Shown: piece after piece, positions 702 to 63,415 of the stretch | Numbering within the stretch: position 1 is the stretch's first letter | Layout of the letters: each line of letters starts with the position of its first letter | DNA from: Raillietiella orientalis | Taxonomy: Eukaryota | Reading direction: 5' to 3' | Length of the DNA stretch: 64,000 bases | Assembly: GCA_036172245.1 (NCBI GenBank) | Contig: JAYWIR010000053.1 | Span: 248,001-312,000, forward strand | Program-made: the position numbers and the translations under genes | Notes under the pieces: model-generated | Databases searched by the model: none | The model's input: only the letters and a program-made list of their open reading frames with translations | Told to the model about the DNA's origin: nothing

Positions 702-3700
702 ATTTCAACGTTCGCCTGAAACCAGATGGGCAGAATCACGAGCGTGAACTGCTCAAAGAGGTGTGCATGTCGGTGCACACCTCCAATTTGTTGGCCAGTG
801 CACCGGGGATGGAGAAGAGCATCGACCACGTGTTTCTTGACGTGCACCTGTGCCCTCGCGTGGGCAGGCGCGGCAAGTTACCGTGCGAGCTGTCCGACCA
901 TCGCTCGATAGTTCTCGAGATCCATCCGCGCTACAGGGGCCCCCCCTCGTCAGCGTGGCGTCTCCCAGCGGACTGGCTGAAGCTCCCGGACGCGGCGGAA
1001 CATCTCCGCACGTTCATACGGAGCTTCAGGCTGCGGACACTCCAGGATTCGGACCGCTTCAAGCGGTCGGTACAGGAGTTCGGCGACCAGTCAACACTGC
1101 ACCGCCAACCTACGGGTTTTGGGACCGGGGTCCGTAACGAACGAGCGTACCTGTAGGCCCGTCGTTACGCCTGAACCCCCGAAATCCGCAGGCTGGTGGA
1201 ATACAAAGCAAGAGCAGAGAGGCAAGCCGGTCAGTCCGGATCGGCCAGCTTGGTGGACGATCTGGGCCAAAAGCACTCGGCACCCGCCCAAATGTGCGGC
1301 CTGCTGGGGAGTTACTACTCCTCCCTGTATGCCAGGGCACCTCCTGAGAGGAACGTTTTACGACTCCTGCTTCCGGAAGGCGCTCCAGAGATCGGGGACG
1401 AGAAAAAGACCATCGACTAGTCTTTCACGATAAACGAGATCCTCTCGGCCATCGGAAAGCTCGAAAGGCGCAAGGCTCCAGGGGAGGACAGCCTGCCCGC
1501 GGTATTTTACCAAACTTTCGCTGCTGAACTTACCTTCCTGGTACAGCAACTCACATTGCTGATACGCGAGACAGGTGACTTTCTTGCCTCGTTTCGTTCG
1601 GCAAAGGTGCGTCTCCACCCTAAGGGAGAAGATCTGAGGAGCATGAACAACTAGCGACCCATCTCAATAGTAAATGAGCACGCCAACTTGCTGGCTAGGG
1701 TTTGGGCAGAGCGTCTGGGACGGGTTGCCAACATCTTCATCAGCCCGGAACAGACTTATGCTGTTGCCAGGTGAAGCATGGAGGCGAATCTGTTCCTCGC
1801 AAGTACATGGTGGCAGTTGAAACAAAGCAAAGACCAGGGAGGTCAAAAGAATCCTGGATTCTCCTCTGACCAGGGAGCGGACGCTTTTCATGGAAGAGCC
1901 GCGCCCGGTGCGCTTGCGGTCGCAGTCGATCTGCGTAAAGCGTTCGATTGCGTCGACCAGGAACTACTTCCGGAACTCCTGGAACGCTTGGGATTCCTAA
2001 CCGTCTTCCGGGCTCACCTGCGCTCCATTTGGCGCTTCGCTCTAATAAACATCTCTTTTAGCGGCCGGCACGTATGCGGCGTGCCGGTTCGGCGTGGCAT
2101 AAGGCAGGCTGACAGTCTGAGCCCTTTGCTCTTCAGCATCTACTTCGACCTGTTGCTGAGGGCATAAAGAAAGAATCTGGAAACCCTGCTAAGCTCGTGT
2201 CGCGGCACGCCTGCCGTGTCGGCCTACGCCGACGACCTTCTGCTCCTGCTCCACAAGTCCAGCCCGGCGTCGACGCTCGAAGATTTTTTAAAGTTGCTGC
2301 GCCGCGGGACAAGCCTCGAGGTGAACAGAGAGAAATCTTCCATCGTTCCAACATCACCATTACTTTTAAGCAATACGGCGTTGGCCAGACGGCCGGACTA
2401 GGTCCGCTTGGGGATCCCCACGGGTAGGTGCTTCAAGTACCTTGGCGTTCCGTTGGGGGACTTTTGCGTTGCAGAAGCCTGGTCAGACCGTCTCCAACAG
2501 GTGGAGTTGGCGATCGGCCCGTTCCGGAACGGCAAGTTTTACTTGCAGGAGCGGGCCGCGGTGTGGAACGCGTTCGAGGCCATCCTCCTTCGCCCCTTAA
2601 TTTTTGTTCGCCCCGCCCCTCCTATTATACAGAGACGGACCAAAGCCCTCTTGAGGACTGCTCTTTGGGGCACAGCGAGTTCGCGAGTCCGATTGAAAGA
2701 CTTGTTGGCTGCACGCATGGATGGTGGCTTGGGCCTCCTTCGTTGGAGTGCATCCAACTACAAACAACACTTCGAAAGTTAGCCCTTGCGGCTAGCTTAT
2801 GGACGACGCCATGGTGCGATCCGGCTCGGCTCCTCGCCAGAAGAGCGACCGGCTACAAGGATTGTCCTCAATCCTCTTGGCCTACCAGCGCAGCCTTTCC
2901 AACTGTGGCTTCCATTTGCGCCAGATGGTCGCCCTGATGATGGAGAATACCTAAATCTGCTCCCTCTTCGCGAACTGCACTGCCTGGCTTCAGGTGTCAG
3001 AATCCGCGTAGGCTAAGATCGACGGCACGAGCGAGGCGGAATACAACTGCCTACGACGAAGACCGCACGCTCGAGAGCCGCTGCAGGAGATTATCAACAC
3101 GTCCCGAAAGTTTCTTTGAGCTTCTTTAAGCCCCCTTGCCCCCGTTTTGTCCTCCCTGAAAAACACTAGAAGCAGCAACGTGCGAGCAGCGAGGGAAGTG
3201 TCCTGCCTTATCCGAGGCAGGAAAAAACCTTTAAAGGCGTGGACGACTCGGGAGCTAACGGACGCTGTTTTTCTGAGCGTCTTTCCGAACAGACTCTTAC
3301 GCTGGGGCGCGCTGCTCGGTATACCTCCGGAGGAGGTGATGCTGCCCCCAGCGTGTTGGGACAACTGCACCCTTGCCCTGAGGTGGCAGGAGACGGCGTT
3401 TCTTCTGCTCCACTGGGGACTTTTAAGCAGAGCACGTCTGTCTCGCTGGACATCGAAGAATGTGGATGCTAATTGTGCAGAGTGCGGGGAAAGGGAGACC
3501 TTCCCCCACTTGATCCTGGAGTGTGTTGTACTCCGCGAAATGTGGGACAGACTATCGTCGATCCTCAACATTCCGGAGGGTGACCCGAAAAACATATTCA
3601 GACGCCTCCTGACGCCAGACGGCTTGCCAGACTCAGGGAAGGTAGCAGTTCTCTGCTGCATACGCGGTATCCTGGAAAAGTGGACCGCGTCTAAGAGAGG

Positions 3701-4114
3701 AAGGACCAGCCGGAATGCCATCTACTGGGCAGCGATCTCCTTCGAGAAACCGTGCCGTTGGCGCCGACTTAATAAAAATTTGCCGGCACTTGTTCGCAGC
3801 CGAAAGTGGATGCAAGGGCCTGCTCACGGCGCACCGTGATCCCCTCCCTCCCTCCCCATCCCCAAACAACATTGCCCTCCACACGTTATTCTTTTTTTTT
3901 TTTTGTTTTATTTTTATTTTCTCCGCCCCGACGCTAGTGAGAAGGACCATATCGGCCTCCGGGTCGGTAAGGACAAGTGCAACAATACGACGATAATCTT
4001 CTGAATGTCCTAAATAGGTAAATTAACTTTGTTCAAAAATTTAGACCTTATTATGAAATTTTTGTATTCTGAAAAATGTGAATAATGAAAGTCCCAGCTT
4101 ACCCGGGTTAAAAA
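702..4114 (+). mobile_element. Decayed family F LINE: ORF2 from (D)FNVRL through RT to zinc finger, plus 3' UTR
   Basis: IDH/SDH (695-1156), DLRKAFD and GIRQADSLSPLLF (1778-2167), YADD (2216-2401), KYLG, CAECGERETFPHLILEC (3147-3839). Many stops. Degenerate hairpin and AAAAA at 4091-4114. Confidence 0.88.
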
Positions 4115-6810: not shown

Positions 6811-6824
6811 GCGGCCGTTGTCGT

Positions 6825-10379: not shown

Positions 10380-10393
10380 GCGGCCGTGGTCGT

Positions 10394-11505: not shown

Positions 11506-12338
11506 ACCACGCAGTCAAACGCTTTATGCAGATCGACTGCGATCGCTAGGGCTCCCTTCCCCACCTGGAAGTCCTGTCCCTGCCCGGCTGACGCCCCCAA
11601 AGCGGGGCTACCGATCCTTCCCTCTTCCTTTTCTTTACTACTCTGCACATGAAACCATGTGCTCGCGAAGAAGAGGTTGGGCTCCATACTTCGCCCGGGA
11701 ACAGCGTAAGTCTGCTCCGGGCTAATTATGGAATTGGCCACCTCCCCCAGACTCGAAGCCCACAGTCCGGCTATCAACGTGGCTTCGGTGTTCACAATTG
11801 TGATCGGACGCCAGTTGCTGAGTTTCCTGAGGTCTCCTCCTTTCGGAAGGAGCCTCACTCTGGCTGATAGAAACGAGGCGGGTACATCGCCTTCATCTCG
11901 GCTCAGCCTTGTCAACTTAAGCACCAGGGGTGCCAACTCTTCCGCGAAGCACTGAAAAAACTCCACAGGCAGGCCGTCCTCCCCTGGTGCTTTCCGCCTC
12001 TTGAGCCTTTTGATACCGGCGAGAATTTCGCCGGTGGTAAAAGGCTCGTCGAGGCTTTCCTCCTCCTCCTCCCCTATTGCCGGGGCACCGTTCGGAAGCA
12101 AGCGCCGAGAGGCATCTTGGTCCGGGGGCGCCCTGGCGTAAAGGGAGGAATGATAACGCCGCACGAGGTGCCGTATTCTAGCCGAAGCCGAGTGCTCCCG
12201 GCCCTGGTCGTCCAGCAAGCTGGCCGATCCGGATTGCCAGACTTGACGTTCGGCCCCGGCTCGGTACTCTGCCAGGCGACGGACATTTGAGGTCCTCGCG
12301 TAACGACGGGCATACAAGTACGCTCTTTCGTTACGGAA
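11506..12338 (-). pseudogene. ORF2 linker/RT fragment (RNERAY to DLHKAFDCV), probably the continuation of the D element at 17013-19662
   Basis: ORF 11145-12587 contains KAPGEDGLPVEFF, NWRPIT and DLHKAFD. Confidence 0.8.
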
Positions 12339-14651
12339 GGACGTATTTTTTCTTCGCTCCCGAGTGAGTCGACAGAAAGCGGTTTTTTTCTTTGTGTGTG
12401 TTCGTGTGGAACATCGTTGGTGTCCGATGGCAGCGATGCCTGAGGACACTATGATAGAGGTAGGTGTGGGGAAGGCTTGCCCACCCCCACAGCCTACAGA
12501 CTCAGGGGCGTCCGCCCCGGAATCGCCCTCGCGGCTCAAGGCGAGGAGCTGGAGCGCCATGGTGGCCGCGCCGAGCGCGGAAACCATGTCCGAGATGGCG
12601 GCCTACCGGGCAGCTGGGTACAAGCCCAGCTTGGTTTACCAGGTAGGCAATCTCTTTGACGGGCGAACTGCCCGCGCTTTTTCGAAAGCGCTGCAGAACG
12701 CCAACGTGTTGGAAAAGGACCTTGACGGTCTATCCGTGCACAACGGGGGTCAGCGCGTCGAGGTTGTCTGCAAGGACATCACTTCGGCGCAAAGCTTGAT
12801 TACCACACCGCTAAACGTGGACGGACGCAAGATCCTACCAGTCACGATGGACCGCTCCGTAGTGGTCCATCTGACAGAAATCACCAGCCGCATGACGCGT
12901 TCTGCGGTTGGTGATCAGTTAAGAATGTATGGAGATGTTCACGTTCTATGGCCAAAGGCCACAATCTTCAGTGGCTACGAGAGCCTTTTCGGAGGGCAGG
13001 CCGCCGCGCGCGTGACGGTGAAGGAGAGTGGGCTTCCCCACAAACTAGAGGTCAATGGCGAAGTCGTAGACCTCTGGTACGTGAAGAAACCCCGCTTTTG
13101 TGGCTGCTCCAATGCAGAAGGAGACTTGCGCAAGCGGTGCCCGAACATTGTGTGCCACTTATGTGGAGAGAAGGGCCACGTACGCCGCGTATGCCCTAAA
13201 CGCCCCACTCCGGTGCCGCCTGCTGCAAAGAAAGCACAGGCAAAACGCGGAAAATTGGTCAAAAGACCAAAAAGAGATACTGGCCGGCAGCAGCACCTAG
13301 CCTCTGTTCCTCCCACACAGGCGTCGGAAGAAAAACCCTCCGAAGACGCGGGAGTCCAAGACGGCTGGCAGCTGGTCAATGCCAGGAAGGAGAAAAAGGT
13401 GCCCCCCGCGAAACCCGCGAAAGCGGTAAAAAAGACAGCCGCCAAGGCGAAAAAACCTGGGGCGCGCTCTAAGACCATGCGGGAGTGTACGGTGGCACTG
13501 GAGCGCATAGTCGTTCCCGAGATTGCCACCCGGGGCGACGAGCCTTCCCTTGCCGTTTCCGCCGCGCCCGAGGATCGCGACGGCGAACCCTCTGTTTACA
13601 CAGTGGGTGAGCCGCGCGAAATAGCGACGGTCGAAGTCGAGGACGCCGCGTTCGCTCAGGCGGCGGAGGAGCTCGCGTCCACGCTGGCGGAGCGTGGAAA
13701 CCCCTCGCGCAAGGCCGTGCGAAGGCCGGCTCCGGCGAAGAAGGCCCCCACTGGAGAGTTAGGCCTGGGGGCCGGAAGTACATCCTCCTCTCGGAGACAC
13801 CCCCTAGGAAGTCGGGACGCAAGTCAAAGAAACCCAGGAGGCGCCTCCCCTCCACCACCGAGGAGGAGAAGCGGGAAGTTAGCGGTAGCGTGGGAATCCC
13901 GGAGGGGGAACTCCCACGCTCGGAAGCCGTCGAGCCGGCCACCCCCATGGAGGAGTGTGAGCAGGGAAGCGAATTCCTTCCCCTAGTCGCTGAGCCTGAA
14001 CAGAACGCCCCCATGGAGGAGGGCCAACAGGTAGGCGCGACCCCAACTGAGGGTGACCCGCTCGACGCGCTGATAGCCTTGGAGGAGGGGGACCAGGTGC
14101 ACGCAGCGCCTGACCCTCCTCCTTCACCTAGCGTCCCGCCCCAACAGGTGGCGGACGCCGCATCGCCATCTTCCCAGGAATAACACCTGGGCTCGCCAGT
14201 CGCCGTAGGATTCGCGCTCCCTGTTGGAACGTCAACGGGCTGCGCGACGACGGTAACCGGCGAGATAGGGCCGACACTCTGCGTCACTTCGAATTGGCGT
14301 TGCTGCAGGAGATTTACGTGATCACCGCGGCAGACGCTCAGGAGATTCAGGCAATCGCGGGGGGTCGACTGTATTGGCGATGCGCCTGCCGCAACACCTC
14401 TGGGATCGCGTTCTTCGTGAAGACATCCATCGACGCAGCCGTATAGGTCGTACGGTTTGATGACGACGGTCGCATTGGTCAGCTGATTCTCAGCTGGTCC
14501 GACTCGATGGACCTAATCGTCACAAACGTGTTTGGACCAAGCGGCAAACAGGGGTACCGCTACCGCACCAGGCTGCTGGAAACCCTGAAGCGCGACTGGC
14601 TGGCGGATACCAATGTGCGAAAGGCTCACCTGATAGCGGGAGATTTCAATC
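12339..14651 (+). mobile_element. Family C1 LINE 5' part: 5' UTR, ORF1 (12427-14183, one frameshift near 13790), TAACA junction, endonuclease up to GDFN
   Basis: MAAMPEDT..., CPNIVCHLCGEKGHVRRVC; closely similar to the 46620-48470 copy. Confidence 0.9.
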
Positions 14652-14810
14652 GAGTGCGGACGTGTTTTTCTTCGCTCTCGTCTCCGGGCTTTCACTCGCT
14701 TCATCCTGGTGTCGAGCATTCTGACGACGATGTCGACCAACCCCGGAGCTGCTGAAGTTGGAGGAACAGCATCCGGATCTGCAATCGAAAAACCGACGGC
14801 CGCATCAGGA
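14652..14810 (+). mobile_element. Family E 5' end fragment inserted at the GDFN codons
   Basis: GAGTGCGGACGTGTTTTTCTTCGCTCTCG and MSTNPGAAEVGGTASGSAI match the 5' end of E at 57354 (minus strand). Confidence 0.85.
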
Positions 14811-22005: not shown

Positions 22006-25000
22006 TCCATCGCTTTGCAGAGATCGACGGCGACCGCCAAAGCACCTATCGTTCCCTTCTTCCGTCGGCGCCTGTTTTTCTTGCCTGCGGCAGTGACTTT
22101 AGCGGCAGCCTGGCTTTGCTGCGCCACAACTTCCTGCAGCTGCATCCATGTACGCGCGAAAAGGATGTTCGCCTCCATGGATCGTCCCGGAACCGCGTAG
22201 GTTTGTTCCGGCATCACCACAGATTCCGCGATACTTCCTAACCGCGCTACCCACAGCTTGGAAAACAACTCGACGTTCGAGTTCACCGAGGTGATCGGAC
22301 GCCAGTTGTTAAGTTGACGCAAGTCTCCGCCTTTCGCCAGGAGACGCACCTTCGCTGGGCGGAAGGAATCCGGGACATTCCCGGATTCACTCATCAGCGT
22401 CGCGAGTTTCAGCGTCAAGGGAATGAGCTCCACTGCGAAGCACTGATAAAACTCTGCAGGGAGCCCATCCTCGCCTGGCGCCTTTCGTCTCTTCAGCCCA
22501 GCGATTGAGGACGAAAATTCATCCGACGTGAAGGGCTCGTCGAGAAGTTCGCGTTCCTCCTCGTCGACAACACGAGCATCCTGAGACAGGAGTATCTCAG
22601 AAAGAATATCCTCCATCGGGGATTCCGCGTCCAGCGAGGAGTAGTAGCGTCTCACAATGCGGCGTACTTCGACTGGGGCCGAACATTCCTGGCCCTTGTC
22701 GTCCAACAGGCATGCTGCTCCGCACTGCCAGACCTGGCGCTCGGCCCTCGCCTTGTACTCTGCGAGACGCCCGACATCGGCGCGTCTCGAAAACGTGCGG
22801 GCCTGCAGAAAGTCTCTACTGTTGGCCACGCCCTCTCCGAAACCGCCTGGAAGCCAATGCAAGCGAAATTGGCAGCAGAACTCGCGGACAGATCTGTTGA
22901 GATCGTCCCAGTCCGCAAGTTCTTGAATGGCAAAGCATCGGAGGTATCCACGTAGATGCTCCGCAGCCTCCGGTTGGCTAAGCCAATCCGCCTGCATCCT
23001 CCAGTTTTGCAACGGAGGCCCCCTGCTTGGCGGAAGGATCTCAAACTCCAACCTGTGGTGGTCAGAAAGCCTAGTGAACAATCTTCCTCTCCTACCCACA
23101 CGCGAATGCAGGTTTTCATCGAGGAAAACGTGATCGAGCGATCTTTCCATTCCAGGTTCGCTGACCATCAAGTTGGCAGCGTGCACGGACGCGCACATAT
23201 CGAGGGGCAGCGCCCGCTCCCTCGGGCGGCTCCAATCGTCGGAGAGCAGGCGGACGTTGAAGTCCCCAGCGACGAGGTGCGCCACTTGGAAACCGGAGTT
23301 GTTGAGCCAGTGTCTCTGCACCTCACCAAAGAAAGCTACTCTTTCTTCGAGGAAGCGAGAGGCACTCGGCGCGTAGACGTTCGTAACGACGAGATCGATG
23401 GACTCGGACCACTTGATGACAAGCTGGCCTATCCGTCCGTCGTCATCCAAACGAACACTACGCACCGCTTCCGCCATTTTTCCTCTTACGAGGAACGCGC
23501 CGCCGCACGTGTGTGCGCCGCCGCACCGCCAATGTAGCGTTCCGCCTGCGCGCTCCTGGATTTCGGCTGCCTGCTCGTCGGAGATTACGTGAATCTCCTG
23601 CAGGAGCGCGAGGTCGGAGGGGCGCAGGGCGTTGGCTACTAATCGCCTCTTCTCGTCGTTCTGTAGTCCGTTCACGTTCCAACACGTTACGGACAGACGA
23701 CGAGAAGACGCGATTCCTCGCATTACTGCTGGGAAGGTGGCGGTTTTTTGCTCGCTTTATCCGGCGAGCAAACGGCGAGCAGCACGACTGGCTGGAGGGG
23801 ACGGTCGCCACCGTCCTCTGTCGTGCTGCATGCATGTAATGCCTCCACGCCAGGCTTAACCCCGTCGGGTTTCGTGGAGACTTCGCGTGGCTTCGCGGCT
23901 AGCGTTGCCTGGCTGCCTACTTTTGGTATGCGCGCACACGCTTTCGAACGAGTTGTCCTCGTCTCGGTGATCGGAACAGCATCCATTTCGGAGTCCGACC
24001 GGCGCATGTTCGATCGGGTTTCGGCCTCCCGCGAAGCAGTGACAGGTTCTGCTGGATTGCCAGCTGTCCTGTTTTCGTTTTCCGTCACCAGAGCATCGCT
24101 TTTGGTGACGGCTGCTTTCCCGGCGCGCGGGTTTTCAGCGTGCTCACGCGCAGTTGCACGAGGGAACTTTGCTGAAGTCTTCTTTACTTCACTACGGTTC
24201 CTCACTTCGCGTGGCGCCGTAAATGGAGATTGTGCTCCATTGCCATCTTTGAAGCCATCCGCGTCTTTAAACGGGAGCACTTTCGATGGGTTCGACACGC
24301 TCGTCATGGACGCTGCCTTCGGAAGGGCTTTTACTCCCTTCTTTGGCATGGCATCCGCGCCAGTCGAGAGCTTGCTCTCTGACTGCGACGGCGTGAGATT
24401 CTTCTCCGCCTTCGCGGTGTTGGATCGCGACGCGGATTTTTTTTTTGCCAACTTTCGAAGTCGACACGGCACAACCCTTCTTACCCGATTTGGGCTTCTC
24501 AGCCACTGCAGTAGGTGAAGGAATGGATCTGACGGTACTGGAAGTGTCCTTACCGCCGTTGTCCATTGACGTCCCCGCCGGTTGCTCGAACTCCGAAAGA
24601 GCCGGGCGTGCTTGGGAAGGACAGCTATTGCGCCTAGGGGGACTTACCATTGCCCCGGATTCCCCGCACCCTTTCTTTTGCGGCTCCCCTGCCGCGAGAG
24701 GGGGCGCGCAGGGCTTCGCGTGCGAGGTTTCCTGCTGCTTTAGGTCGACATTCCGCCTCGCGTGTTTTCGGAATTTCTGCCGTGGGGTCTCCAGGTTTTT
24801 CGCAGATTTTTTCTTTTTATCCGCGCTTGGTTTTTTAAGATGGAGCTCCGCGGCTGCCTTTTTTCGCAAAAGATCCGGTCAATTTTTCAATTGGTGCCCG
24901 GATAGTTTGCAATAACGGCATTTTCCAGAGGGGCTTTTATCCAAACAATGCCCCTCCTTCCCGCATTGCTCGCACGTTCTTACTTTGCCCACGAACCACA

Positions 25001-25626
25001 CGTTAACGACCGTGTCTTTCACCTGTAGTTTGGTGGGCAGCAGACGGCGGTCCGGCATTGTAAGCCGGACTCCAGCGACTCCGCGGTGTATGGACGGGAA
25101 GTCCTTGAGGTTGCTACGCACCCTCCACAGCGCATGGACCGTGGCGAATTTCGCCAACGCGTTCCGAATATCAATATCTGAGATTCATGACTCGATGTCG
25201 AAAATCTCCGCCACAAATGAGTCATCCATGGCTGCCGGGAAGACCTCCTGGCCACGGATCGACAACGGGGTGCGCAGCAAGCGTTGCACAAGTGCAGCGT
25301 CTTTGCAACGCACCTTGAAATAGCCCATATTATTTACGGGCATAATGGCGAGGAGGTCCTCCTCCCGCACGCCAACAGGGGTCAGTTCATCGTTGAACTG
25401 ATTCCCGTCGCGCGCAGAAAGAAAACCACTCACCTTATATCGGAGAGAAGGTCTATAGACTTGGGCTACGTATGCATGCATCTCCGACTCGTCGAGTGGT
25501 TTCCCTTTGACGGCTGCTGTGGCAGCAACGTCAGCAAAACTCCTCTCCATTATCGAGAAAGACGAAGTGGAGGCGGCCGTCGGTTCCGCGATTGCAGATC
25601 CGGATGCTGTTCCTCCAACTTCAGTA
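22006..25626 (-). mobile_element. Family E copy 2: ORF1 (frameshifted), TAATG junction, ORF2 endonuclease and RT N-part
   Basis: ORF 21849-23723 MRGIASSRRLSVTCWNVNG...DLCKA; near copy of about 53640-57256. Confidence 0.9.
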
Positions 25627-51404: not shown

Positions 51405-51441
51405 CACGGGGACGAGAGCGAAGAAAAACACGTCCGCACTC
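51405..51441 (-). mobile_element. 37-bp 5' terminal remnant of a family E copy
   Basis: CACGGGGACGAGAGCGAAGAAAAACACGTCCGCACTC matches 57318-57354 with one mismatch. Confidence 0.85.
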
Positions 51442-51450
51442 GATTGAAAT
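51442..51450. repeat. Target-site duplication GATTGAAAT (second copy at 57355-57363)
   Basis: Exact 9-bp repeat flanking full-length E. Confidence 0.88.
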
Positions 51451-54400
51451 TTATCACCCGGTCACGCCGGGGCGTTTATTAATAATAATAAACTGGTCAG
51501 GGACAATGTCCCCAACCAACAGAACGACAGAGAACATAGAAAAATTACCGCCACGCAGGCCTGGTAAACAAACCGCTCGCAGCGTGGGGGGAATGAGGGG
51601 AAACAAACAAAAATCAAAAACTGGAGGGAAGGGTAACGGGTTTTTGGTTAGGCTCCGTACTCACGGGGATTTATACGATGAGCACCTAAAATGTTCCGGA
51701 GCCTATGGGGACGCGGGTGTAAAAAGAAAATACAAATTTAGTTTATGGAGTGTAGGGCAATGATCACCGGGTTGGCCGCTGATGAGGGTGTGTAAACCGG
51801 CGGTGTATTGCGGCGAGATTCCTCTTTGTCTCCTCTGTCAAATGAGGCCATCTAGCGGATGCTCCCATGTAGAAGGATGCTTTGCTGATTACTTCTTGGT
51901 GCTGTCCGTTGATTACCAACGCCTGGCGGACGGAAACTATCGCGCGTATGCAACCGATGGTTGCAATCCTTGCGCTTAGTGAAAGCCCGCTCGGCGTGAA
52001 GAATCGTCGCAGCACGTCTCTTGCGGTGTCCACGGGATGCAATAGTGCTGTTGCCAGCCTACGCCACAGTCCTTGTAGGACACCGCAGTCCAGAAGTAGG
52101 TGTGGAATCGACTCCGTCGATCCGCACCGAACGCAGTTCGCAGACGCAAGTCCCCGGAGTCACGATGCCAACGCTCGTTGCACTGAAAACCCCAGTGAAC
52201 GAAAAGCAGCACGGCTTGTTTCCAAGCAAGGGGGAGCAGCGAACTGTCCATACACTGAGGAGGGACTACAAGTTCTTCGGGGGTGACAGCAAGTTCTTCT
52301 GCCCACCGGAGGAGTCCCTTTGCAGTAACACGAGGAGTGGCGGCGTCCGCCAACTCACTTGTCTTCCAGGTGCCAAGGAGTTTGGTTCTTCCCGCTATCG
52401 TGCAGGAAACCACCCACCTCGCCGGTTGGTAACTGTCGTTTCTTGCCCTGAGGGCAGACAGCGCTGCGGCAAGAGGCGTGGCAGCCAGGGTAGAAAACTT
52501 CACCTCGTCCTGCAGTACTTCTTCCAAGGATCGTAGAAAAAATTGGCGCAGGGGGCGAAGATCTTCAGGGCGTATTCCTTGGAACGCCGCCCAGGATTCA
52601 ACAGACTCCTGCCGCCAAGCTTCAAAGTTCATTGGGCGGCAGGAGATCCAAGAGTGTGCTTCCAGAAGTGCGGTCAACTGCCGCAATGGAAACCTGAAAC
52701 CCCGCTTCCTGTATTGAGTGCCCGGCAAAAGCGAGAGAAATCCTCCGCTGCCGGCGCATCTCCGCAGGAGAATGCGAGCTGGCACACACAGGGGGGATGT
52801 CCATAGCTGGGCACACAGTGCCAGCAGTCGGAACTGCACCTGCAGTCCGATTCGTTCCATTGTCAGGATACCCAAACCAGCATCCCGACGCGGAGCTGAC
52901 AAATCTTTAAGGCGGATCCTGGATCTCGCCGGACCTCAGAGAGCGTTCCTGAGCAGGCGTTTAGCCCGCTGTTTTGCCGCATAGGGGGGTCCAAAACAAA
53001 AAACAGGGGACGGAGGAGGGGGGCCACAAAGGTGTTCCAAATAGTCGCCCGTTCCTGCAAGGTAAACTTGCCGTTGAAGAACGGGCTGATGGCCAACTCT
53101 GCTTTCTGAAGACAGTTCGCCCACGCTTCGGCTGCGCCGAAAGCGCCCAACGGAACGCCAAGGTACTTAAAGTACCCGCCCGTGGGAATCCCCAGGCGGA
53201 TCCAGTCGGACTGCCCCTCCCACGACGTACCCACAGGAACGACCACGCTCTTCTCTCTGTTCACGCTCACGCCCGCTCCTCGACGAATCAGGTCGAAGAA
53301 ATCCTCGACACTGGACGCCGGGGTGGACATGGGGAGCAGAAGAAGCAGGTCATCAGCGTAGGCGGCCACGGCAGGCGTTCCCGGGCAGGAGCTTGTCAAG
53401 TGAGACAGCGTCAGCCTGTATGCTCTTAGCACCAACTCAAAGAAGATGCTGAAGAGCAACGGGCTTAAGCTGTCGCCCTGTCGGATGCCCCTACGAACGG
53501 GAATACCATACACGCGGCAGCCGCTAAAGTGATGCAGGTTAGCGCGTGGCGCCAGCACGCGCGCAAATACAGCAGGAGTTGCGCCGGGAACCCAAGGCGT
53601 TCCATAAGCTCCAAAAGCAGCTTCTGGTTTACGCAGTCGAACGCCTTGTGGAGATCGACCGCGACCGCCACGGCACCTGGCGTTCCCTCCTGCCGTCGGC
53701 GCCTGTTCTTTTTGCCTGCGGCAGTGACTTTCGCAGCAGCCTGGCTTTGCTGCGCCACAACTTCCTGCAGCTGCATCCATGTACGGGCGAAAAGGATGTT
53801 CGCCTCCATGGATCGTCCCGGAACCGCGTAGGTTTGTTCCGGGCTCACCACAGATTCCGCGATTCTTCCTAACCGCGCGACCCACAGCTTGGAAAACAAC
53901 TTGACGTCCGAGTTCACCAAGGTGATCGGACGCCAGTTGTTAAGTTGGCGCAAGTCTCCGCCTTTCGGCAGGAGACGCACCTTCGCTGAGCGGAAGGAAT
54001 CAGGGACATTCCCGGATTCACTCATCAGCGTCGCGAGTTTCAGCATCAAAGGAATTAGCTTAACTGCAAAGCACTGATAAAACTCTGCAGGGAGCCCATC
54101 CTCGCCTGGCGCCTTTCGTCTCTTCAGCCCAGCGATGGCGGACGAAAATTCATCCGCCGTGAAGGGCTCGTCGAGACGTTCGCGTTCCTCCTCGCCGACA
54201 ACACGAGCATCCTGAGACAGGAGTATCTCAGAAAGAATATCCTCCGTCGGGGATTCTGCGTAGAGCGAGGAGTAGTAGCGTCTCACAATGCGGCGTACTT
54301 CGGCTGGGGCCGAACATTCCTGGCCTTTGTCGTCCAACAGGCATGCTGCTCCGGACTGCCAGACCTGTCGCTCGGCCCTCGCCTTGTACTCTGCGAGACG

Positions 54401-57354
54401 CCCGACATCCGCGCGTCTCGAAAACGTGCGGGCCTGCAGAAAGTCTCTACTGTTGGCCACGCCCTCTACGAAACCGCGTGGAAGCCGGTGCAAGGGGAAT
54501 TGGCAGCAGAACTCGCGGACAGATCTTTTGAGATCGTCCCAGTCCGCAAGTTCTTGAATGGCAAAGCCTCGGAGGTATCCACGTAGATGCTCCGCAGCCT
54601 CCGGTTGGCTAAGCCAATCCGCCTGCATCCTCCAGATTTGCAACGGAGGCCCCCTGCCTGGCGGAAGGATCTCAAACTCCAACCTGTGGTGGTCAGAAAG
54701 CTCAGTCAACAATCTTCCTCTCCTACCCACACGCGAATGCAGGTTTTCATCGAGGAAAACGCGATCGAGCGATCTTTCCATTCCAGGTTCGCTGACCATC
54801 AAGTTGGCGGCGTGCACGGACGCGCACATCTCGATGGGCAGCGCGCGCTTCCTCGGGCGGCTCCAATCGTCGGAGAGCAGGCGGACGTTGAAGTCCCCAG
54901 CGACGAGGTGCGCCACTTGGAAACCGGAGTTGTTGAGCCAGTGGCTCTGCACCTCACCAAAGAAAGCTACTCTTCCTTCGAGGTAGCGAGAGCCACTCGG
55001 CGCGTAGACGTTCGTAACGACGAGATCGATGGACTCGGACCACTTGATGACAAGCTGGCCTATCCGTCCGTTGTCATCGAAACGAACACTACGCACCGCT
55101 TCCGCCATTTTTCCTCTTACGTGGAACGCGACGCCGCACGTGTGTGCGCCGCCGCACCGCCAATGTAGCGTTCCGCCTGCGCGCTCCTCGATTTCGGCTG
55201 CCTGCTCGTCGGAGATTACGTGAATCTCCTGCAGCAGCGCGAGGTCGAAGGGGCGCAGGGCGTTGGCTACTAATCGCCTCTTCTCGTCGTTCTGCAGTCG
55301 GTTCACGTTCCAACACGTTACGGACAGACGACGAGAAGACGCGATTCCTCGCATTACTGCTGGGAAGGTGGCGGCTTTTTGCTCGCTTTATCCGGCGAGC
55401 AGACGGCGAGCAGCACGACTGGCTGGAGGGGACGGTCGCCACCGTCCTCTGTCGTGCTTCATGCATGTAATGCCTCCACGCCAGGCTGAACCCCGTCGGG
55501 TTTCGTGGAGACTTCGCGTTGCTTCGCGGCGAGCGTTGCCTGGCTGCCTACTTTGGATCGGCGCGCACACGCTTTCGAACGAGTTGTCCTCGTCTCGGTG
55601 ATCGGAACGGCATCCATTTCGGAGTCCGACCGGCGCATGTTCGATCGGGTTTCGGCCTTCCGCGAAGCAGTGACAGGTTCTGCTGGATTAACAGCTGTCC
55701 TGTTTTCGTTTTCCGTCACCAGAGCATCGCTTTTGGTGACGGCTGCTTTCCCGGCGCGCGCGTTTTCAGCGTGCTCACGCGCAGTTGCACGAGGGACCTT
55801 TGCTGAAGTCTTCTTTACTTCATTACGGTTCCTCACTTCGCGTGGCGCTGTAAATGGAGATTGTGCTCCATGGCCATCTTTGAAGCCATCCGCGTCTTTG
55901 GACGGGAGCACTTTGGATGGCTTCGACACGCTCGTCATGGACGCTGCCTTCGGAAGGGCTTTTAATCCCTTCGTTGGCATGGCATCCGCGCCAGTCGAGA
56001 GCTTGCTCTCCGACTGCGACGGCGTGAGATTTTTCTCCGCTTTCGCGGTGTTGGATCGCGACGCGGATTTTTTTTTGCCGACTTCCGAAGTCGACACGGC
56101 ACAACCCTTCTTACCCGATTTGGGCTTCGCAGCCACTGCAGGAGGTGAAGGAATGGATCTGACGGTACTGGAAGTGTCCTTACCGCCGTTGTCCATTGGC
56201 ATCCCCGCCGGTTGCTCGAAGTCCGAAAGAGCCGGGCGTGCTTGGGAAGGACAGCTATTGCACCTAGGGGGACTTACCATTGCCCCGGATTCCCCGCACC
56301 CTTTCTTTTGCGGCTCCTCTGCCGCGAGAGGGGGCGCGCAGGGCTTCGCCTGCGAGGTTTCCTGCTGCTTTGGGGCGACATTCCGCCTCGCGATTTTTCG
56401 GAATTTCTGCCGTGGGGTCTCCAGGATTTTCGCAGATTTTTTCTTTTTATCCGCGCTTTGTTTTTTAAAATGGAGCTCCGCGGCTGCCTTTTTTCGCAAA
56501 AGATCCTGGCAAATTTTTAATTGGTGCCCGGATAGTTTGCAATAACGGCATTTTCCAGAGGGGCATTTATCCAAACAATGCCCCTCCTTCCCGGATTGCT
56601 CGCACGTTCTTACTTTCCAAACGAACCACAGGTGAACGACCGTGTCTTTCACCTGTAGTTTGATGGGCAGCAGACGGCGGTCCGGCATTGTAAGCCGGAC
56701 TCCAGCGACTCCGCTGTGTATGGACGGGAAGTCCTTGAGGTTGCTACGCACCCTCCACAGCGCATGGACCGTGGCGAATTTCGCCAACGCGTTCCGAATA
56801 TCAGTATCGGAGATTTCCGACTCGATGTCGAAAATCTCCACCACAAATGAGTCGTCCATGGCGGTCGGGAAGACCTTCTGGCCACGGATCGACAACGGGG
56901 TGCGCAGCAAGCGTTGCACAAGTGCAGCGTCTTTGCAACGCACCTTGAAATAGCCCATGTCTTTTACGGGCATAATGGCGAGAAGGTCCTCCTCCCGCAC
57001 GCCAACACGGGTCAGTTCATCGTTGAACTGATTCCCGTCGCGCGCAGAAAGAAAACCACTCACCTTATATCGGAGTGCAGGTCTATAGCCTTGGGCTACG
57101 TATGCCCGCAACTCCGACTCGTCGAGAGGTTTCCCTTTGACGGCTGCTGTGGCAGCAACGTCAGCAAAACTCCTCTCCATTGGCGAGAAAGACGAAGTGG
57201 AGGCGGCCGTCGGTTCCGCGATTGCAGATCCAGATGCTGTTCCTCCAACTTCAGTAGCTTCAAGTTGGGTCGACATCGTCGTCAAAATGTACGACGCCAA
57301 GATGAAGCGGATGAAAGCACGGAGACGAGAGCGAAGAAAAACACGTCCGCACTC
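51451..57354 (-). mobile_element. Full-length family E LINE (5904 bp); ORF1 (ATG 57276) and ORF2 (55354-51764) carry frameshifts
   Basis: All EN, RT and zinc finger motifs; TAATG junction; exact 9-bp flanking repeat GATTGAAAT at 51442-51450 and 57355-57363. Confidence 0.94.
57336..57354 (-). promoter_or_regulatory. Conserved 5'-terminal motif (G/A)GACGTGTTT, putative internal Pol II promoter element (representative copy)
   Basis: Motif or close variant near every element 5' end; promoter function is inferred. Confidence 0.55.
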
Positions 57355-59797
57355 GATTGAAATCTCCCGCTATCAGGTGAGCCCTACGCACATTGGTATC
57401 CGCCAGCCAGTCGCGCTTCAGGGTTTCCAGCAGCCTGGTGCGATCGCGGTATCTCTGTTTGCCGCTGGGGCCATACACGTTTGTGACGATTAGTTCGATC
57501 GAGTCGGACCAGCTAAGAATCATCTGACATATCCGACCGTCGTCATCAACCCGCACGCCCTTTACGGCAGCGTCGATGGCCGGCTTCACGAAGAACGCGA
57601 CCTCGCAGGTGTTGCGGAGGCCGCATCGCCAATACAACCGACTCCCCGCGATCGTCTCGATCTCCTGGGCGTCTGATGCAGTGATCACGTGGATCTCCTG
57701 CAGCGGCGCCAGGTCGAGCTCACGCACGGTGTCGGCCCTATCTCGCCTGTTGCCGTCGTCGCGCAGCCCGCTGACGTTCCAACAGGCCGCGCGAATCCGA
57801 CGACGACTGGCGCGCCAGGGTGTTAGTCCTGGGAAAACAACAATGCGGCGTTCGCCACCTGTTGGTGCGGGACGCTAGGTGGAGAAGGAGGAGGGACAGG
57901 TACTGAAGGCACCTGTTCCTCCTCTTCCATCGGTGCCGGCGGGTCGGCCGGATCACCTGCAGGTGGAGTCGCGCCTACCTGTTCGCCCTCTTCCATGGGT
58001 TCGGGCTGCTCAAGTTTCGCGACTGCAGATAGGACTTCACCCCCCTGCTCACACTCCTCCATGGAAGTGGCCGACTCGACGGCTTCCGGGCGTGGGTGTT
58101 TCCCCTCCAGGATTCCCAAGCTGCCGCTTCCTTCTGGCTTCTCCTTCTCGCTGGTGGAGGGGAGGCGCCTCCTGGGATTCTGGGACTTGCGTCCCGACTT
58201 CCTGGGGGGTGCCTCCGAGGAGGAGGATCCGCTTCCGGCCCCCATGTCGCACTCACCTGCGGGGGACTTCTTCGTATGAACCGACCTGCGTACGCCCTTG
58301 CGCGACGGGGTTTCTCGCTCGGCGAGCGTTGCTGCGAGCTCCTCCGCCGCTTTCTCGAAGGCCGCTTCTTCGCCAGCGGCGACCGTTGCCGCGGCCTGCT
58401 CCGCGACCTTATCGAGCGCGGCGTCATCGCTGACGGCGAACGTTGCCGCGGGCTCCTGCGCGACTTTATCGAGCGCGGCGTCCTGGCTGTCGGTGCGCGA
58501 GTCTCGCGTCTCACCCTCTAAACGTAGAATGGGCTCGTCCACGCGAGTATTCATCGGGTCCGCATCAGCTGTTCCGCGAACATTGCCGCGGGCGGACTCG
58601 GCAGGAACGGCTAAGCGTTCCAGTGCCACCGAGCATTCGTGAAGTTGTTTTTTTTTTGAAAGCGGCGCGGCTTTTTTCTTGTTGCCGACAGTTTTCTTCT
58701 CCGGTTTTTCTTCTGGCATCACTTTTTTTTTTTTCTCTTTTCTGGCCTAAACCAGCTGCCAACCCTCCTCCATTTCCGCGTTCACGGGAGCTTTTTCCTC
58801 CAACGTCTGTACGGGAGAAAGGGAGGCTGGCAGTTGTTAACGGCTATTTTGGAGAGCTGGTCTTTCTACCAGCTTTCCACGTTTTCCCTGCGCCCTTTGG
58901 CGGCAGGGGGCACCGGGGTGGGGCGCTTGAGGCACACGCGCCGAACGAGACCCTTTTCGCCGCATAGGTGGCACACAATGTTCGGGCACCTTTTTCGTAG
59001 ATGCCCTACTGCATTTCAGTAGCCACAAAATTGGCATTTCCTCACGTACCAGAGGTCCACCGCTTCTTGGCAGACCTCCAGCTAGTAGGGAAGCGCACCA
59101 CGCTCTTTCACGGTGATACGCGCGGCAGCTTGACCTCCAAAAAGGCTATTGTAGCCTTGGAAAATCGTGGACTTCGGCCACAACGCGTACACTTCTGCGT
59201 GCTTTTGTAACTGTTCGCGAACCCCTCTCCTAGTCATGCGACTGGAGATCCCAGTGAGATGGACCACCACCGAGCGGTCCATCGTCACCGGCAAGATCTT
59301 CCAACCATCAACGATCAGCGGTTCGGTGATCAGGTGTCGGGCCAAGGTGATATCCTTGCATACCACCTCGACCCGCAGCCCGCGGCTGAGGACGCAGAGG
59401 CCGTCCAGATCTTTTTCGAAGGTATTGGCGTTCTGCAGCGCCTTCGTAAAGGCGCGTGCAGTTCGCCCATCGAAAAGGTTGCCTACCTTGTAGACTAGCG
59501 AGGGTTTATACCCCGCTTTCTTGTAGGCTTCCATCTCGGCCATGGCTTCCACGCTAGGCGCGACCACCATTGCGCTCCATGACCTCGGCGTCGCCGGGGA
59601 CGATTCCGGGAAGGATGCCCCTGATCCAGTAGACTGTGGGGACGAACAATCCTCTATCACGCCTACTTCCATCGTGGTATCCTCTGGCAACGCAGCCATC
59701 GGACTCCGACGATGTGCACGCACAAATCACTCAAGAAAAAACCACTCGCCTTGACACGCAGGCGTTGGGCAGTAAAAGCACGTACTCTCTCCACAGC
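57355..59797 (-). mobile_element. Family C2 LINE 5' part (5' UTR, decayed ORF1, TAACA junction, endonuclease to GDFN)
   Basis: MAALPEDTTMEVG, GYKPSLVYKVGNLFDGRTARAF; endonuclease ORF 57260-57727 ends ...IAGDFN. Confidence 0.88.
58320..58490 (-). repeat. 57-bp coding repeat, three units, in C2 ORF1
   Basis: DAALDKVAQEPAATFAVSD / DAALDKVAEQAAATVAAGE / EAAFEKAAEELAATLA. Confidence 0.75.
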
Positions 59798-62744
59798 GGG
59801 GAATCGGCGAGGGAGTCAGGAACGTGCGGGCATACGTTCAGGCCCGCCGTTATTCCAGGCGTCCCGACGTCCGTCTCCTAACAGAATTTAAGGATGAGGC
59901 GGAGAGGCAGGCCTGGCAGTCAGCCTCGGCCTGCCTGCTGGATCATCAGGGCCAAGAACGCTCCAGCCCAGCCCAGGTAAGCCGCATCGTGCGGGAGTTT
60001 TATTCCTCCTTGTACGCGCCACTAACACCTGAGCGCTATTTCGCGCAGCGCCTGCTGCCGGATGGTGCTCCCGCGCTCAAGGAGGAGGACCGTTCCAGAT
60101 TGGCGGAACCGTTCACGATGGAGGAGATCATCTCCGCCATCAACAGGCTCAAGAGAAGGAAGGCACCAGGGGAGGACGGCCTGCCCGCGGAGTTTTACCA
60201 TCGCTTCGCGCCAGAGCTGGCCCCCCTGGTGCTCAGGTTAAGTGCGCTGATCCGCGAACACGGCGAAGTTCCCGCCTCGTTCCGGTCAGCAAAAGTACGT
60301 CTCCTGCCGAAGTCAGGAGACTTACGCAACATTGGCAACTGGCGTCTCATCACAGTAGTGAATGCGGACGCAAAGTTGTATGCCAAGTTGTGGGCTTAGC
60401 GCTTGGGGGGGGGTGGCCGCTTCCGTGATCAGTCTGGAGCAGACCTATGCTGTTCCCGGACGAAGGATGGAGACAGACCTGCTTCTCGCCAGCCCATGGT
60501 GGCAATTGCGACAACGCGTAGTCCAGGAAGGTCAAGGTAGTCTTGCGCTCCCCTCTGACCAGGAACATCAAATAGAGGGTGGGAGGGACTCGGCGGGAGC
60601 CTTTGCAGTCGCGGTCGACTTGCGCAAAGCATTCGACTGCGTCGACCAGGAACTGCTTTTGGAGCTCCTGGAACGCATGGGTTTCCCGGCCGTGCTCCAG
60701 TCCTACCTGCGCTCCTGCTGGCGCAACGCGTCTATGAATATTTGTTTCAGCGGCCGGCACGGGTACGGCGTGCCAGTGCGCCGCGGCATACGGCAGGGTG
60801 ACAGCCTGAGCCCCTTGCTCTTCAGCATCTACTTTGAGTTGGTGCTTAGGGCATACAGGGTAACTCTGGCAGCCCTGCCGAGCTCGTGTGCCGGCACGCC
60901 TGCCGTGTCGGCCTATGCAGACGATCTTCTGCTGCTGCTTCCCGGGTCCACTCCGGCGAGTGCGCTCGAGGATTTCTTCGAGTTGCTGCGCCGCGGGACG
61001 GGCCTGGAGGTGAACAGGGGGAAGTCGTCCATGGTCTTCGTCGGTTCGGCGTGGGCTGGACGGTCGGATTGGATCCGCTTGGGGATCCCCACGGACAGGT
61101 GCTTCAAGTACCTAGGCGTTCCGATGGGGGAATTCTGCGCAGCAGAAGCCTGGTCCGACCGTCTCCAAAAGGCAGCGTTGGCGACCGGTCCGTTCCAAGA
61201 AAGCAAGCTTCACTTGCAGGAACGGGCCGCGGTGTGGAACGCGTTTGCGGCCCCCCTTCTTCGCCCCCTACTTTTTGTGTGCCCCGCCCCTTACTTCATC
61301 CGTAAACGAGCAGCGGGCCTCCTGAGGACAGTCCTTTGGGGCAAAGGGAGGTCCCGTGTGAGGCTCAAAGACTTGTGCGCTCCACGTAAGGACGGAGGAC
61401 TAGGCGTTCTTACGCTGGAGCGCATTGAACTACAACTTAGGTTCAGGACTCTCGCTCTTGCAGCGGAATTGTGGGACACGCCTTGGTGCGTTCCAGCACG
61501 CCTCCTGGCCCAACGAGCCTACGGATGCGACGGACTTTTGTCGTTTCTGCTGGCACGCGACCGCAGAGAAGCACACGGCTGCTTATTCCTGCGTCGCATG
61601 GAAGTTGCGGTACGGGAGAACGCCTAGATCTCCTGCCGCCCAGGGAACTACTCTGCATGGCTGCACGAGTCAGTGTCCACCTGGGTAAAGATCCACGTTT
61701 CGGCGGGCACAAGAAACACTTGCCTGCAAAGGCACGCCCGCTGGAAACTGCAGGAGATCGTGCAGTCCCACGAAAAGCGCATGTGGGCTTTGATTACCCC
61801 CCTTGCCCCAGTGCTGCCCTTCCTAATCGACGCCAGGGACAGTAGGGAGCTTGGGAAATAAAACGTGTCCTGCACTATTGGAGGCAGGACACAAACGATT
61901 ATGGCGTGGACATCTCGGCAGCTAGCGGACGCTGCGACACCGAGAGTCCCGCCTAACGGAATTCGACGCTCGGGCGAGCTACTCGGACTATCTCCGGAGG
62001 AGATGAAGTGGCCCCCGGCGTCCTGGAACAGTGGATCATCCCCCTGAAATGGCAGGATGTGGCGTTGCTTGTGGTCCTCTGGGGACTTCCATTCAAAGCA
62101 CGCCTTCATCACACAACCCGTGGGGCTGTGGATCCTTATTGTGACCGGTGCGGGGAAAAAGAGACCTTCCCCCACCTTCTCATCGAGTGCAGTGCCATTC
62201 GCCCTTTATGGGATCGCCTTACGGCGATCCTGGACTTGCGCGGATGCGGCCCTAAGGACGTTTTTAGGCTCCTCTTCCGTAGTGACGCCTTGTCCCCCCC
62301 CTCTTCTGTAGCAGTGTAGCAGTCCTCTGTTGCATTCGAGGATGTGCGGCTTTCTGGAACGCCAATGCCTAGTACGCCGCCAACCGGCAACGCCTTACGG
62401 TTCACCCGCCTATTCTGTCGAGACGTCTGCAAGTGGCGCCACTTGGGCGCAGAGAGGACTCAGCTTGTACGGATCCTAAATAGGATCTAGAGGACCTATC
62501 CGCCCGCACGGTGATCTTCTCCCTGCCCTCCCATTCCCGAAACATTTGCTCCCTCCCATACTTCAACTATTTGTTTGTTTTTTGTTTTGTTCTTTCCCAA
62601 CCCCCGCGGATCGGATGGACCTCTACGGCATAGCGCCCGTAAATACCAAGCTGTTTTGTAGTGGTGGACCTTTGGGTTCATCACGCGACAATCCATTGTG
62701 ATTTTATTCTTTTGAATAAATTCCCCGGCATATCCGGGTGAAAA
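59798..62744 (+). mobile_element. B1 LINE 3' part (linker, RT, zinc finger, 3' UTR), decayed
   Basis: Starts at GEGVRN; YADD in ORF 60362-61627; hairpin at 62715-62744. Confidence 0.9.
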
Positions 62745-63030: not shown

Positions 63031-63415
63031 AGCGACCTCCACTTCGTCTTTCTCGCCAATGGAGAGGAGTTTTGCTGACGTTGCTGCCACAGAGCCGTCA
63101 AAGGGAAACCACTCGAGGAGTCGCAGTTGCGGGCATACGTAGCCCAAGGCTATAGACCTGCTCTCCGATATAAGGTGAGTGGTATTCTTTCTGCGCGCGA
63201 CGGGAATTCGTTCAACGATGAACTGACCCGTGTTGGCGTGCGGGAGGAGGACCTTCTCGCCATTATGCCCGTAAATAATATGAACTATTTCAAGGTGCGT
63301 TGCAAAGACGCTGCACTTGTGCAACGCTTGCTGCGCACCCCGTTGTCGATCCGTGGCCAGAAGGTTTTCCCGGCCGCCATGGGCGACTCATTTGTGGCGG
63401 AGATTTTTGACATCA
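63031..63415 (+). pseudogene. Family E ORF1 N-terminal fragment
   Basis: RAYVAQGYRPALRYKVSG...EDLLAIMPVNNM; inverted copy of about 56825-57205. Confidence 0.85.

Follow-up and report, generated by a model that had tools for sequence, protein, structure and literature searches.

Why do the ends of one retrotransposon family lie at the same few codons of its neighbours? This question is raised by a 64,000-nt stretch of the Raillietiella orientalis genome (GenBank assembly GCA_036172245.1, contig JAYWIR010000053.1, positions 248,001 to 312,000; hereafter the window), in which copies of a long interspersed nuclear element (LINE), family E, adjoin the codons of the GDFN motif in the endonuclease of other LINEs. 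A preliminary description had reported four such junctions, and we located all of them, with E 5′ ends at 14652 and 57354 and E or E-like 3′ ends at 701 and 51451. On the evidence below it is probable that E, together with its relative E′, is a sequence-specific L1-like LINE that inserts into GDFN codons, within a guild of LINEs that target one another.

The 24-mer at the E 5′ end, GAGTGCGGACGTGTTTTTCTTCGC, had three exact matches in the window (14652 on the plus strand, 51441 and 57354 on the minus strand), compared with none expected from 100 shuffles, and ATTTCAATC directly preceded all three of these 5′ ends. The E 3′ motif GTGACCGGGTGA had two exact matches (687, plus; 51465, minus). At 687–698 it is followed by AAA and then by ATTTCAACG (702–710), from which host F reads FNVRLKPDG. 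At 51465–51454 it is followed by TAA, by ATTTCAATC (51450–51442) and then by the 5′ end of a second E. All five informative E-type termini in the window adjoin ATTTCAAY. The two strands of the 64 kb together (128,000 strand positions; 9.4e−5 per position) hold 12 copies of this sequence: nine are the D-F-N codons of ORF2 (open reading frame 2) copies, one lies between two E elements and two are at unrelated places. Given this rarity, a chance adjacency of five termini is negligible.

The insertion breakpoints are fixed by uninterrupted paralogues that run straight through the site. B (46164, minus) and C4 (40503, minus) read GGAGATTTCAATC directly followed by TCCGTCTG, matching hosts C1 and C2, and J (11421, plus; F-like) reads GGCGATTTCAACG followed by TTTGCC, matching host F. 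The same paralogues bear out the earlier statement that every junction is in sense orientation and at the same codon position. E lies in sense orientation between G and A of GGNG^ATTTCAAY, and a 9-bp duplication, ATTTCAATC, stands on both sides of the full-length copy, E-main. Written for the hosts, the target block is GGAGATTTCAATCTCC, in duplex form GGAGATTTCAATCTCCG, with the E-type variant GGGGACTTCAACGTCCG. That ATTTCAATC might be a terminal repeat of E itself was considered and rejected, since hosts without an insertion have a single copy of it, at precisely this position. LIAGDFNLRL of B aligns with LIMGDFNTPL of the human L1 endonuclease (GDFN being residues 144–147, counted along the alignment), and D145 and N147 of this motif are catalytic residues of the human enzyme.

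Two host families (C and F) and one head-to-tail E–E pair carry E-type sense insertions at this nucleotide. The three different hosts of the preliminary description reduce to two host families, C1 and C2 being members of one. E′ and E share ~70% nucleotide identity over 223 nt, the last ~32 nt being the same, and host F has 58% amino-acid identity to family C. Positions of all these features are given in Table 1.

Host and E share orientation at the 5′ junctions, and template jumping is known for LINE reverse transcriptases. Both points would fit an origin of these junctions as chimeric cDNAs, produced when the reverse transcriptase jumps from the E 5′ end to a host mRNA with no insertion into GDFN. 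Such a jump would have to land repeatedly on the same nucleotide, and it could yield neither a 3′ junction that passes from the E tail into ATTTCAAY and a host's downstream half nor the flanking 9-bp repeat. We regard this origin as very improbable.

Table 1 Family E copies, their hosts and associated features in the window (UTR, untranslated region; APE, apurinic/apyrimidinic endonuclease).
Feature	Position	Strand	Remarks
Host C2, 5′ half	57355..59798	minus	5′ UTR, ORF1 and endonuclease residues 1-179, ending ...AHLIAGDFN; tblastn: B ORF2 residues 1-179 at 57895-57356 (85%), C-type ORF1 at 59741-58029
Upstream copy of the 9-bp duplication	57355..57363	minus	ATTTCAATC; D-F-N codons and first base of the next codon
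E-main	51451..57354	minus	Full-length E, 5,904 bp; starts GAGTGCGGACG..., ends ...AATAAACGCCCCGGCGTGACCGGGTGATAA; 5′ terminus also written GAGTGCGG
E ORF1	55459..57276	minus	605 codons and stop; ORF list, start codon set by counting in the peptide
E ORF2	51782..55426	minus	Encodes APE endonuclease and reverse transcriptase, spread over four frames; tblastn, Pfam
GDFN codons of E-main itself	54887..54898	minus	GGGGACTTCAAC, unlike occupied sites (GGAGATTTCAAT)
GDFN codons of E-b itself	23256-23267		GGGGACTTCAAC, as in E-main; GATTTCAAY at every occupied site
Downstream copy of the 9-bp duplication	51442..51450	minus	ATTTCAATC
Second E	51405..51441	minus	First ~37 nt, following E-main head-to-tail; truncated by W, at the W 3′ end
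W	tail ends 51404	plus	A-family element
Host C1, 5′ half	12336..14651	plus	5′ UTR, ORF1 and endonuclease residues 1-179; ends in ATTTCAATC (14643-14651)
E 5′ fragment	14652..14803	plus	About positions 1-151 of E, ~88% identical to E-main; then the 5′-truncated element X
E′	1..701	plus	3′ part of an E-like element; ends ...AATAAACGTCCCACCGTGACCGGGTGAAAA
Host F, downstream half	702..4114	plus	Begins exactly at ATTTCAACG (D-F-N-V) and runs to its own 3′ end; tblastn: B ORF2 residues 177-1218 map to 701-3827
E-b	22006..25626	minus	Internal E copy, about positions 98-3712, 95.5%; uninformative on the target because both ends are cut by other elements
E-c	63036..63414	plus	E piece, about positions 151-530, 95%
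Twelve 3′ ends	701, 4114, 6825, 17013, 22005, 31223, 35689, 37130, 42818, 51404, 51451, 62744		From at least five families

Contigs from a public sequencing run (X1) supplied a further junction. At 51442 two of them leave the window sequence, so that the E 3′ end and ATTTCAATC continue as TCCGTCTGCTATCAG... (also written TCCGTCTGCTATCAGTTGATCC...), which encodes LRLLS... of the downstream half of a C-like host and, compared by eye, differs from C4 at 5 of 30 positions. This continuation had no match in the window at up to three mismatches. An X1 contig of 3,755 nt, 98.6% identical to the window (54 differences), crosses the 5′ junction by 30 nt and then stops, one base short of the length at which we counted a junction as bridged. 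Among the X1 3′ junction types listed here, one is at the GDFN site and one elsewhere; the run held 52 further loose ends and 80 further contig pieces beyond those listed.

The same contigs bear on whether the junctions are artefacts, that is, repeats mis-joined in the long-read assembly. The window and the X1 contigs diverge by ~1%, and three frame breaks of 1 nt in the window are missing from the contigs. Nevertheless, one X1 contig passes the 5′ junction by the 30 nt given above, another starts at the 9-bp repeat of the 3′ end, and the same junction sequence stands at three places in the window with different surroundings; an artefact is scarcely credible. The three frame breaks, all in the ORF2 of E-main, lie at or within 3 nt of 1-nt insertions in the X1 contigs (53525, 52983 and 52151) and therefore reflect either indels of the assembly or changes confined to E-main. 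There may be a form of E whose ORF2 is open, the alternative being indel errors in the assembly. Run X2 gave no matching piece and run X3 a single piece of 35 nt. A metagenome scan with the 16-mer CGTGACCGGGTGAWAA, too short a pattern, returned E context at 0 of 120 loci, one of which (L034) was dismissed as a chance look-alike, and the E 5′ 24-mer had no match in either genome_contigs or viral_contigs.

Several observations of this paragraph and the next weigh against a site preference of E, beginning with the history of the C1 and C2 junctions. The INDEPENDENCE of these junctions was assessed over the 2.3–2.4 kb from the 5′ end to the junction, with C1, C2, B and C4 aligned. Identity to C1 was 91.7% for B, 91.1% for C4 and 74.8% for C2. 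We counted sites at which C1 equals C2 and not B and C4 (these two agreeing), sites at which C1, B and C4 agree against C2, and sites at which C2, B and C4 agree against C1. Upstream of alignment column 2300 the respective counts were 24, 429 and 95, compared to 12, 3 and 6 in the last 149 columns, where C1 sides with C2 (Fisher's test, p = 2e−12 versus the whole upstream part and p = 3e−4 versus the endonuclease part alone, for a 149-column cut-off picked after viewing the data). When family A served as outgroup, the quartet sites of the last 480 nt upstream of the junction grouped C1 with C2 seven times, C2 with B/C4 five times and C1 with B/C4 once. Identity between the C1 and C2 composites peaks at 90–96% from −150 to +50 of the junction; farther upstream it lies at 70–90%, and the two 50-nt bins of E that come next have 78% and 92%. 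The alignment presents C1 as a mosaic, B/C4-like except for a C2-like stretch in the last ~150–350 nt before the junction, and the two junction regions probably share ancestry, so that the C1–E and C2–E junctions were counted as about one 5′ context. The preliminary description had raised the prospect that the C1 and C2 composites are duplicates of one event. For the composites as wholes this was rejected (75% identity over 2.1 kb), whereas near the junction the pattern agrees with it (12 versus 3 sites), and a duplication of only ~200 nt around the junction would be compatible with the alignment. The independent contexts left are E′ in host F, the head-to-tail E–TSD–E pair (TSD, target-site duplication) and the X1 junction into a C-like host.

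Six of the nine GATTTCAAY GDFN sites in the window are empty, and E-c is joined on its 5′ side to A-like ORF1-tail sequence, not to GDFN codons. In two X1 contigs an E-type 3′ end, with a match that begins at 51449, lies at another endonuclease site. Their flank matches 25 of 28 bases of J (11093–11120), which there is the sense strand of the endonuclease region (HVISAE...QE) just past the QEIH motif, and the E-type 3′ end thus also lies antisense at a second endonuclease site. Since X1 contigs that share just the last ~40 nt with E exist (loose end behind 51480), the element at this second site may be a relative of E. Finally, junction numbers are small, and all window counts come from this one 64-kb window.

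Part of this evidence would suit a history in which one or a few chance insertions of E into GDFN gave a composite that was then spread by segmental duplication, unequal crossing-over or gene conversion, with no site preference. The mosaic C1, whose junction-proximal ~150 nt group with C2, is of this kind; the window is a recombination-prone array of similar repeats, and many junctions in the nest fail to pair as simple nested insertions. Such a history is at odds with E′ in F, where both element and host family differ but the nucleotide does not, and with the E–TSD–E tandem and the X1 host-downstream junction, which are different types of junction. Divergence of 25% between C1 and C2 over 2.1 kb speaks against duplication of a whole composite, and families C and A recur likewise at sites of their own. 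We consider chance insertion followed by copying unlikely.

Spread guided by homology in place of an endonuclease was also weighed. Here E RNA, cDNA or DNA bearing host flanks that pair with the conserved region would enter empty GDFN sites through read-through transcripts or, in the way that introns home, through break repair accompanied by co-conversion. The tract at the C1 junction resembles co-conversion, its identity peak being centred on the junction; all cases are in sense orientation, and homology-assisted 5′ joining has been described for R1 and R2. The exact 9-bp duplication around E-main and the presence of E′ in the diverged host F, with its differing flanks, are left unexplained, and a break at that exact nucleotide would still require a specific nick; we find homology as the sole guide quite unlikely. 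The C2-like tract could stem from recombination between composites, from break repair with co-conversion or from E RNA with a host leader.

Recurrence at a fixed site was not confined to E, as at least three families in the nest have their own recurrent sites in other elements. Family C comprises B, C4, C1, C2 and a 3′ piece at 37130–38606, and both of its 3′ junctions read GGCAA followed by CACCGAAGCCC, the antisense of the GFGEG codons in the ORF2 of other elements. At the first of them (37130/37129) the flanking bases run antisense to ...LERLPPGFG in an A-like host, and at the second (42818/42817) another C 5′ end begins directly, giving a head-to-tail tandem (B then C4) like that of E. One 11-mer, C(A/G)CCGA(A/T)(G/T)CCC, stands before three of the four C 5′ ends (48481–48471, 59809–59799 and 42817–42807) and looks like an 11-bp duplication, and the C1 5′ junction (about 12336) is displaced from this C-site by about 25 nt. 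Family A has three of its four 3′ junctions at one ORF1-tail site, in sense orientation in A-like hosts (31224/5, 35689/90 and 62744/5), and A1 itself has this site empty (26850); the remaining junction, that of W (51404/5), is antisense in the E 5′ UTR. This ORF1-tail target is poorly conserved. As a separate observation, the full-length A1 adjoins the antisense E-b at about E position 98.

The window consists of nothing but nested pieces of L1-like non-LTR (non-long-terminal-repeat) retrotransposons on both strands, with a GC content of 0.55–0.64. In intact elements, ORF2 encodes an APE-type endonuclease (PF03372) followed by a reverse transcriptase (PF00078). Both Pfam domains were matched in E ORF2 (E-values 2e−10 and 5e−8, with a further 7e−9 in the next frame) and likewise in B ORF2, and a search of solved structures with the endonuclease returned human LINE-1 endonuclease chains as its top matches (1vyb, 8sp5). 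Terminal repeats are absent, several copies of other families are 5′-truncated, and the 9-bp duplication surrounds E-main. By ORF2 domain order, A-ending tail, duplication and 5′ truncation, the families of the window are APE-type (L1/Tx1-like) non-LTR retrotransposons. The ORF1 of family C matched zf-CCHC at 18.7 bits, below the curated cut-off of 20.8, and E ORF1 had no match in Pfam, a CCHC-like knuckle spacing being visible by eye in its translation. Protein searches with E ORF2 and B ORF2, together with a protein atlas, found no close named relative; the closest match to E ORF2 was an unnamed metagenome protein of 619 aa (59% identity), and the remainder reached at most 32%.

All 12 aligned 3′ ends carry AATAAA(C/T)G-CCC(G)G-loop-C(C)GGGT and a short tail ending in AA, namely GATAA, GAAAA or GGCAA. 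No covariation was detected at any of the five pairs of this hairpin across the 12 ends, the sequence being invariant, and we therefore counted it merely as a conserved motif. Several families also share a similar 5′ start, G(A)GTG..GACGTGT.TTTC..GCTC. Common ends of this kind suggest recognition signals shared across families, possibly with cross-mobilisation. A scan of the whole window against Rfam gave no match at gathering score and no known 5′ ribozyme; near the E 5′ end there were only two sub-threshold microRNA look-alikes.

If E is indeed site-specific, its endonuclease would nick the bottom strand between G and A of GGNG^ATTTCAAY, and the freed 3′ end (...GAAAT-3′) would prime cDNA synthesis on the A-ending RNA tail behind the conserved 3′ hairpin. 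We infer this scheme from target-primed reverse transcription and from the specificity that the endonuclease encodes in TRAS1, Tx1L and R1Bm (in the excerpted text of PMC1919474), and by this analogy the endonuclease is the presumed source of the E site specificity. A cut in the top strand 9 bp downstream would complete the duplication, and re-insertion into a duplicated copy of the site would generate head-to-tail E–E pairs. The 5′ junction might be sealed by homology with host sequence on a read-through RNA, or be copied by recombination; either would explain the C2-like tract beside the C1 junction.

The preliminary description argued that a target which encodes a catalytic residue can hardly be mutated by the host and that each insertion would disable a competitor, a logic it likened to that of homing endonucleases. 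The first argument was not specifically supported: of the nine positions of the site, three are third codon positions open to synonymous change, and synonymous escape from the site is possible, as demonstrated by the GDFN codons of E itself, which read GAC TTC AAC G (GGGGACTTCAACG) in both E copies compared with GAT TTC AAT C at the target. Recoding of its own site may reflect self-immunity of E or merely lineage history. A catalytic target is also unnecessary for the strategy, because C recurs at GFGEG, which is not known to be catalytic, and A recurs in the poorly conserved ORF1 tail. The pay-off for E would more plausibly be a safe, self-renewing target in a LINE-only cluster than an attack on the catalytic residue itself, a preference that stems from its explaining all three families, E, C and A. 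Somewhat short of an even prospect, we suggest, is a wider ecosystem of mutually targeting LINEs (E into GDFN in sense, C into GFGEG in antisense and A into the ORF1 tail), each family having evolved an endonuclease for its own short coding block of the others, that would build and renew a LINE-only, possibly centromere-like cluster, with E protected from itself by synonymous recoding.

The known targets of site-specific APE-type LINEs are rDNA, telomeres, small RNA genes, microsatellites and a single DNA transposon, and homing endonuclease genes, inteins and group I and II introns are selfish inserts in conserved catalytic motifs. Like these homing elements, E occupies a constrained site, and a flanking tract looks co-converted (~150 nt upstream of the C1 junction). 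Unlike them, E most likely moves by reverse transcription at a nick, its insert is not spliced and the host copy is destroyed. R1Bm (in 28S rDNA) and TRAS1/SART1 (in telomeric repeats) share with E two ORFs, an N-terminal APE endonuclease, a fixed orientation and insertion nucleotide, and a short duplication of constant length. They use multicopy host genes or repeats as targets, whereas that of E is the coding sequence of other LINEs. E showed no close relationship to these elements, database matches reaching at most 31% apart from the unnamed metagenome protein at 59%, and the specificity of its endonuclease is presumed. APE-type LINEs in which the endonuclease itself reads about 10 bp around the nick are established in TRAS1, Tx1L and R1Bm (as excerpted from PMC1919474). 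Tx1L, whose target in Xenopus laevis is the DNA transposon Tx1D, is like E an APE-type LINE that targets a site inside a transposable element (same excerpts, PMC1919474). However, the Tx1L target is non-coding sequence of a DNA transposon, compared with a conserved block of catalytic-motif codons of related LINEs for E, and in the window several LINE families target one another, unlike Tx1L.

In cluster architecture the window resembles those of Zepp and ZeppL in green algae, LINE-only clusters that arise from nested insertion that ‘targets existing copies’ (excerpted text of PMC8226300). Zepp has two ORFs and a GC content of about 61%, versus 53% for the genome, in Coccomyxa (excerpted text of PMC3446292). 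The likeness, which extends to a GC content of 55–64%, two ORFs and 64 kb made up entirely of nested L1-like pieces in both orientations, is one of architecture and composition and not a phylogenetic placement. A nucleotide-level target for Zepp is not defined in those portions of the Zepp literature that were searched. CNL1 of Cryptococcus neoformans reportedly inserts preferentially into its own copies in arrays; it groups with R2/MoTeR-type elements, is subtelomeric and has a specificity left undefined in the excerpted text (PMC12810828), in contrast to E as an APE-type element with a defined 9-bp site.

Our literature search found neither a LINE with a fixed target in a conserved coding motif of other LINEs nor a set of mutually targeting LINE families, and an earlier description of a Zepp site preference is possible. 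If confirmed genome-wide, insertion of E into GDFN codons would explain the in-place growth of LINE-only clusters of the Zepp/ZeppL type, offer a clean system for transposon conflict, including escape of the target by synonymous change, and add new natural specificities of 9–11 bp to the small set of sequence-specific APE endonucleases. Were the ecosystem of mutually targeting families to hold, it would explain at the level of nucleotides how nested insertion comes to target existing copies, as has long been described for Zepp-type clusters.

A number of minor features were also observed in the nest. Two E pieces, both on the plus strand and 48 kb apart, break at the same place, near E position 150 (14800–14806 and 63034–63036); one keeps positions 1 to ~151 and is followed by element X, and the other starts at ~151 behind A-like ORF1-tail sequence. 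The two may be halves of one copy, or their shared break may mark the target of another family. A family related to E, with an ORF1 43–46% identical to that of E, has two 5′ ends on the minus strand (6808–6824 and 10377–10393), both preceded by ACGAC(A/C)ACGGCCGCAC, and one of these directly follows the 3′ end of element H in a tandem-like arrangement. Element D (17016–19665, minus) is without ORF2 residues ~131–208, an internal deletion of ~230 bp at 17243–17249 having removed the GDFN region, perhaps as the trace of an insertion since lost. Three breakpoints (22005/22006, 11504–11508 and 9665) lie in or beside AVDLHKAFDCV, a reverse-transcriptase motif, in different hosts; one is the antisense 3′ junction of element Z, and this region may be a further recurrent target.

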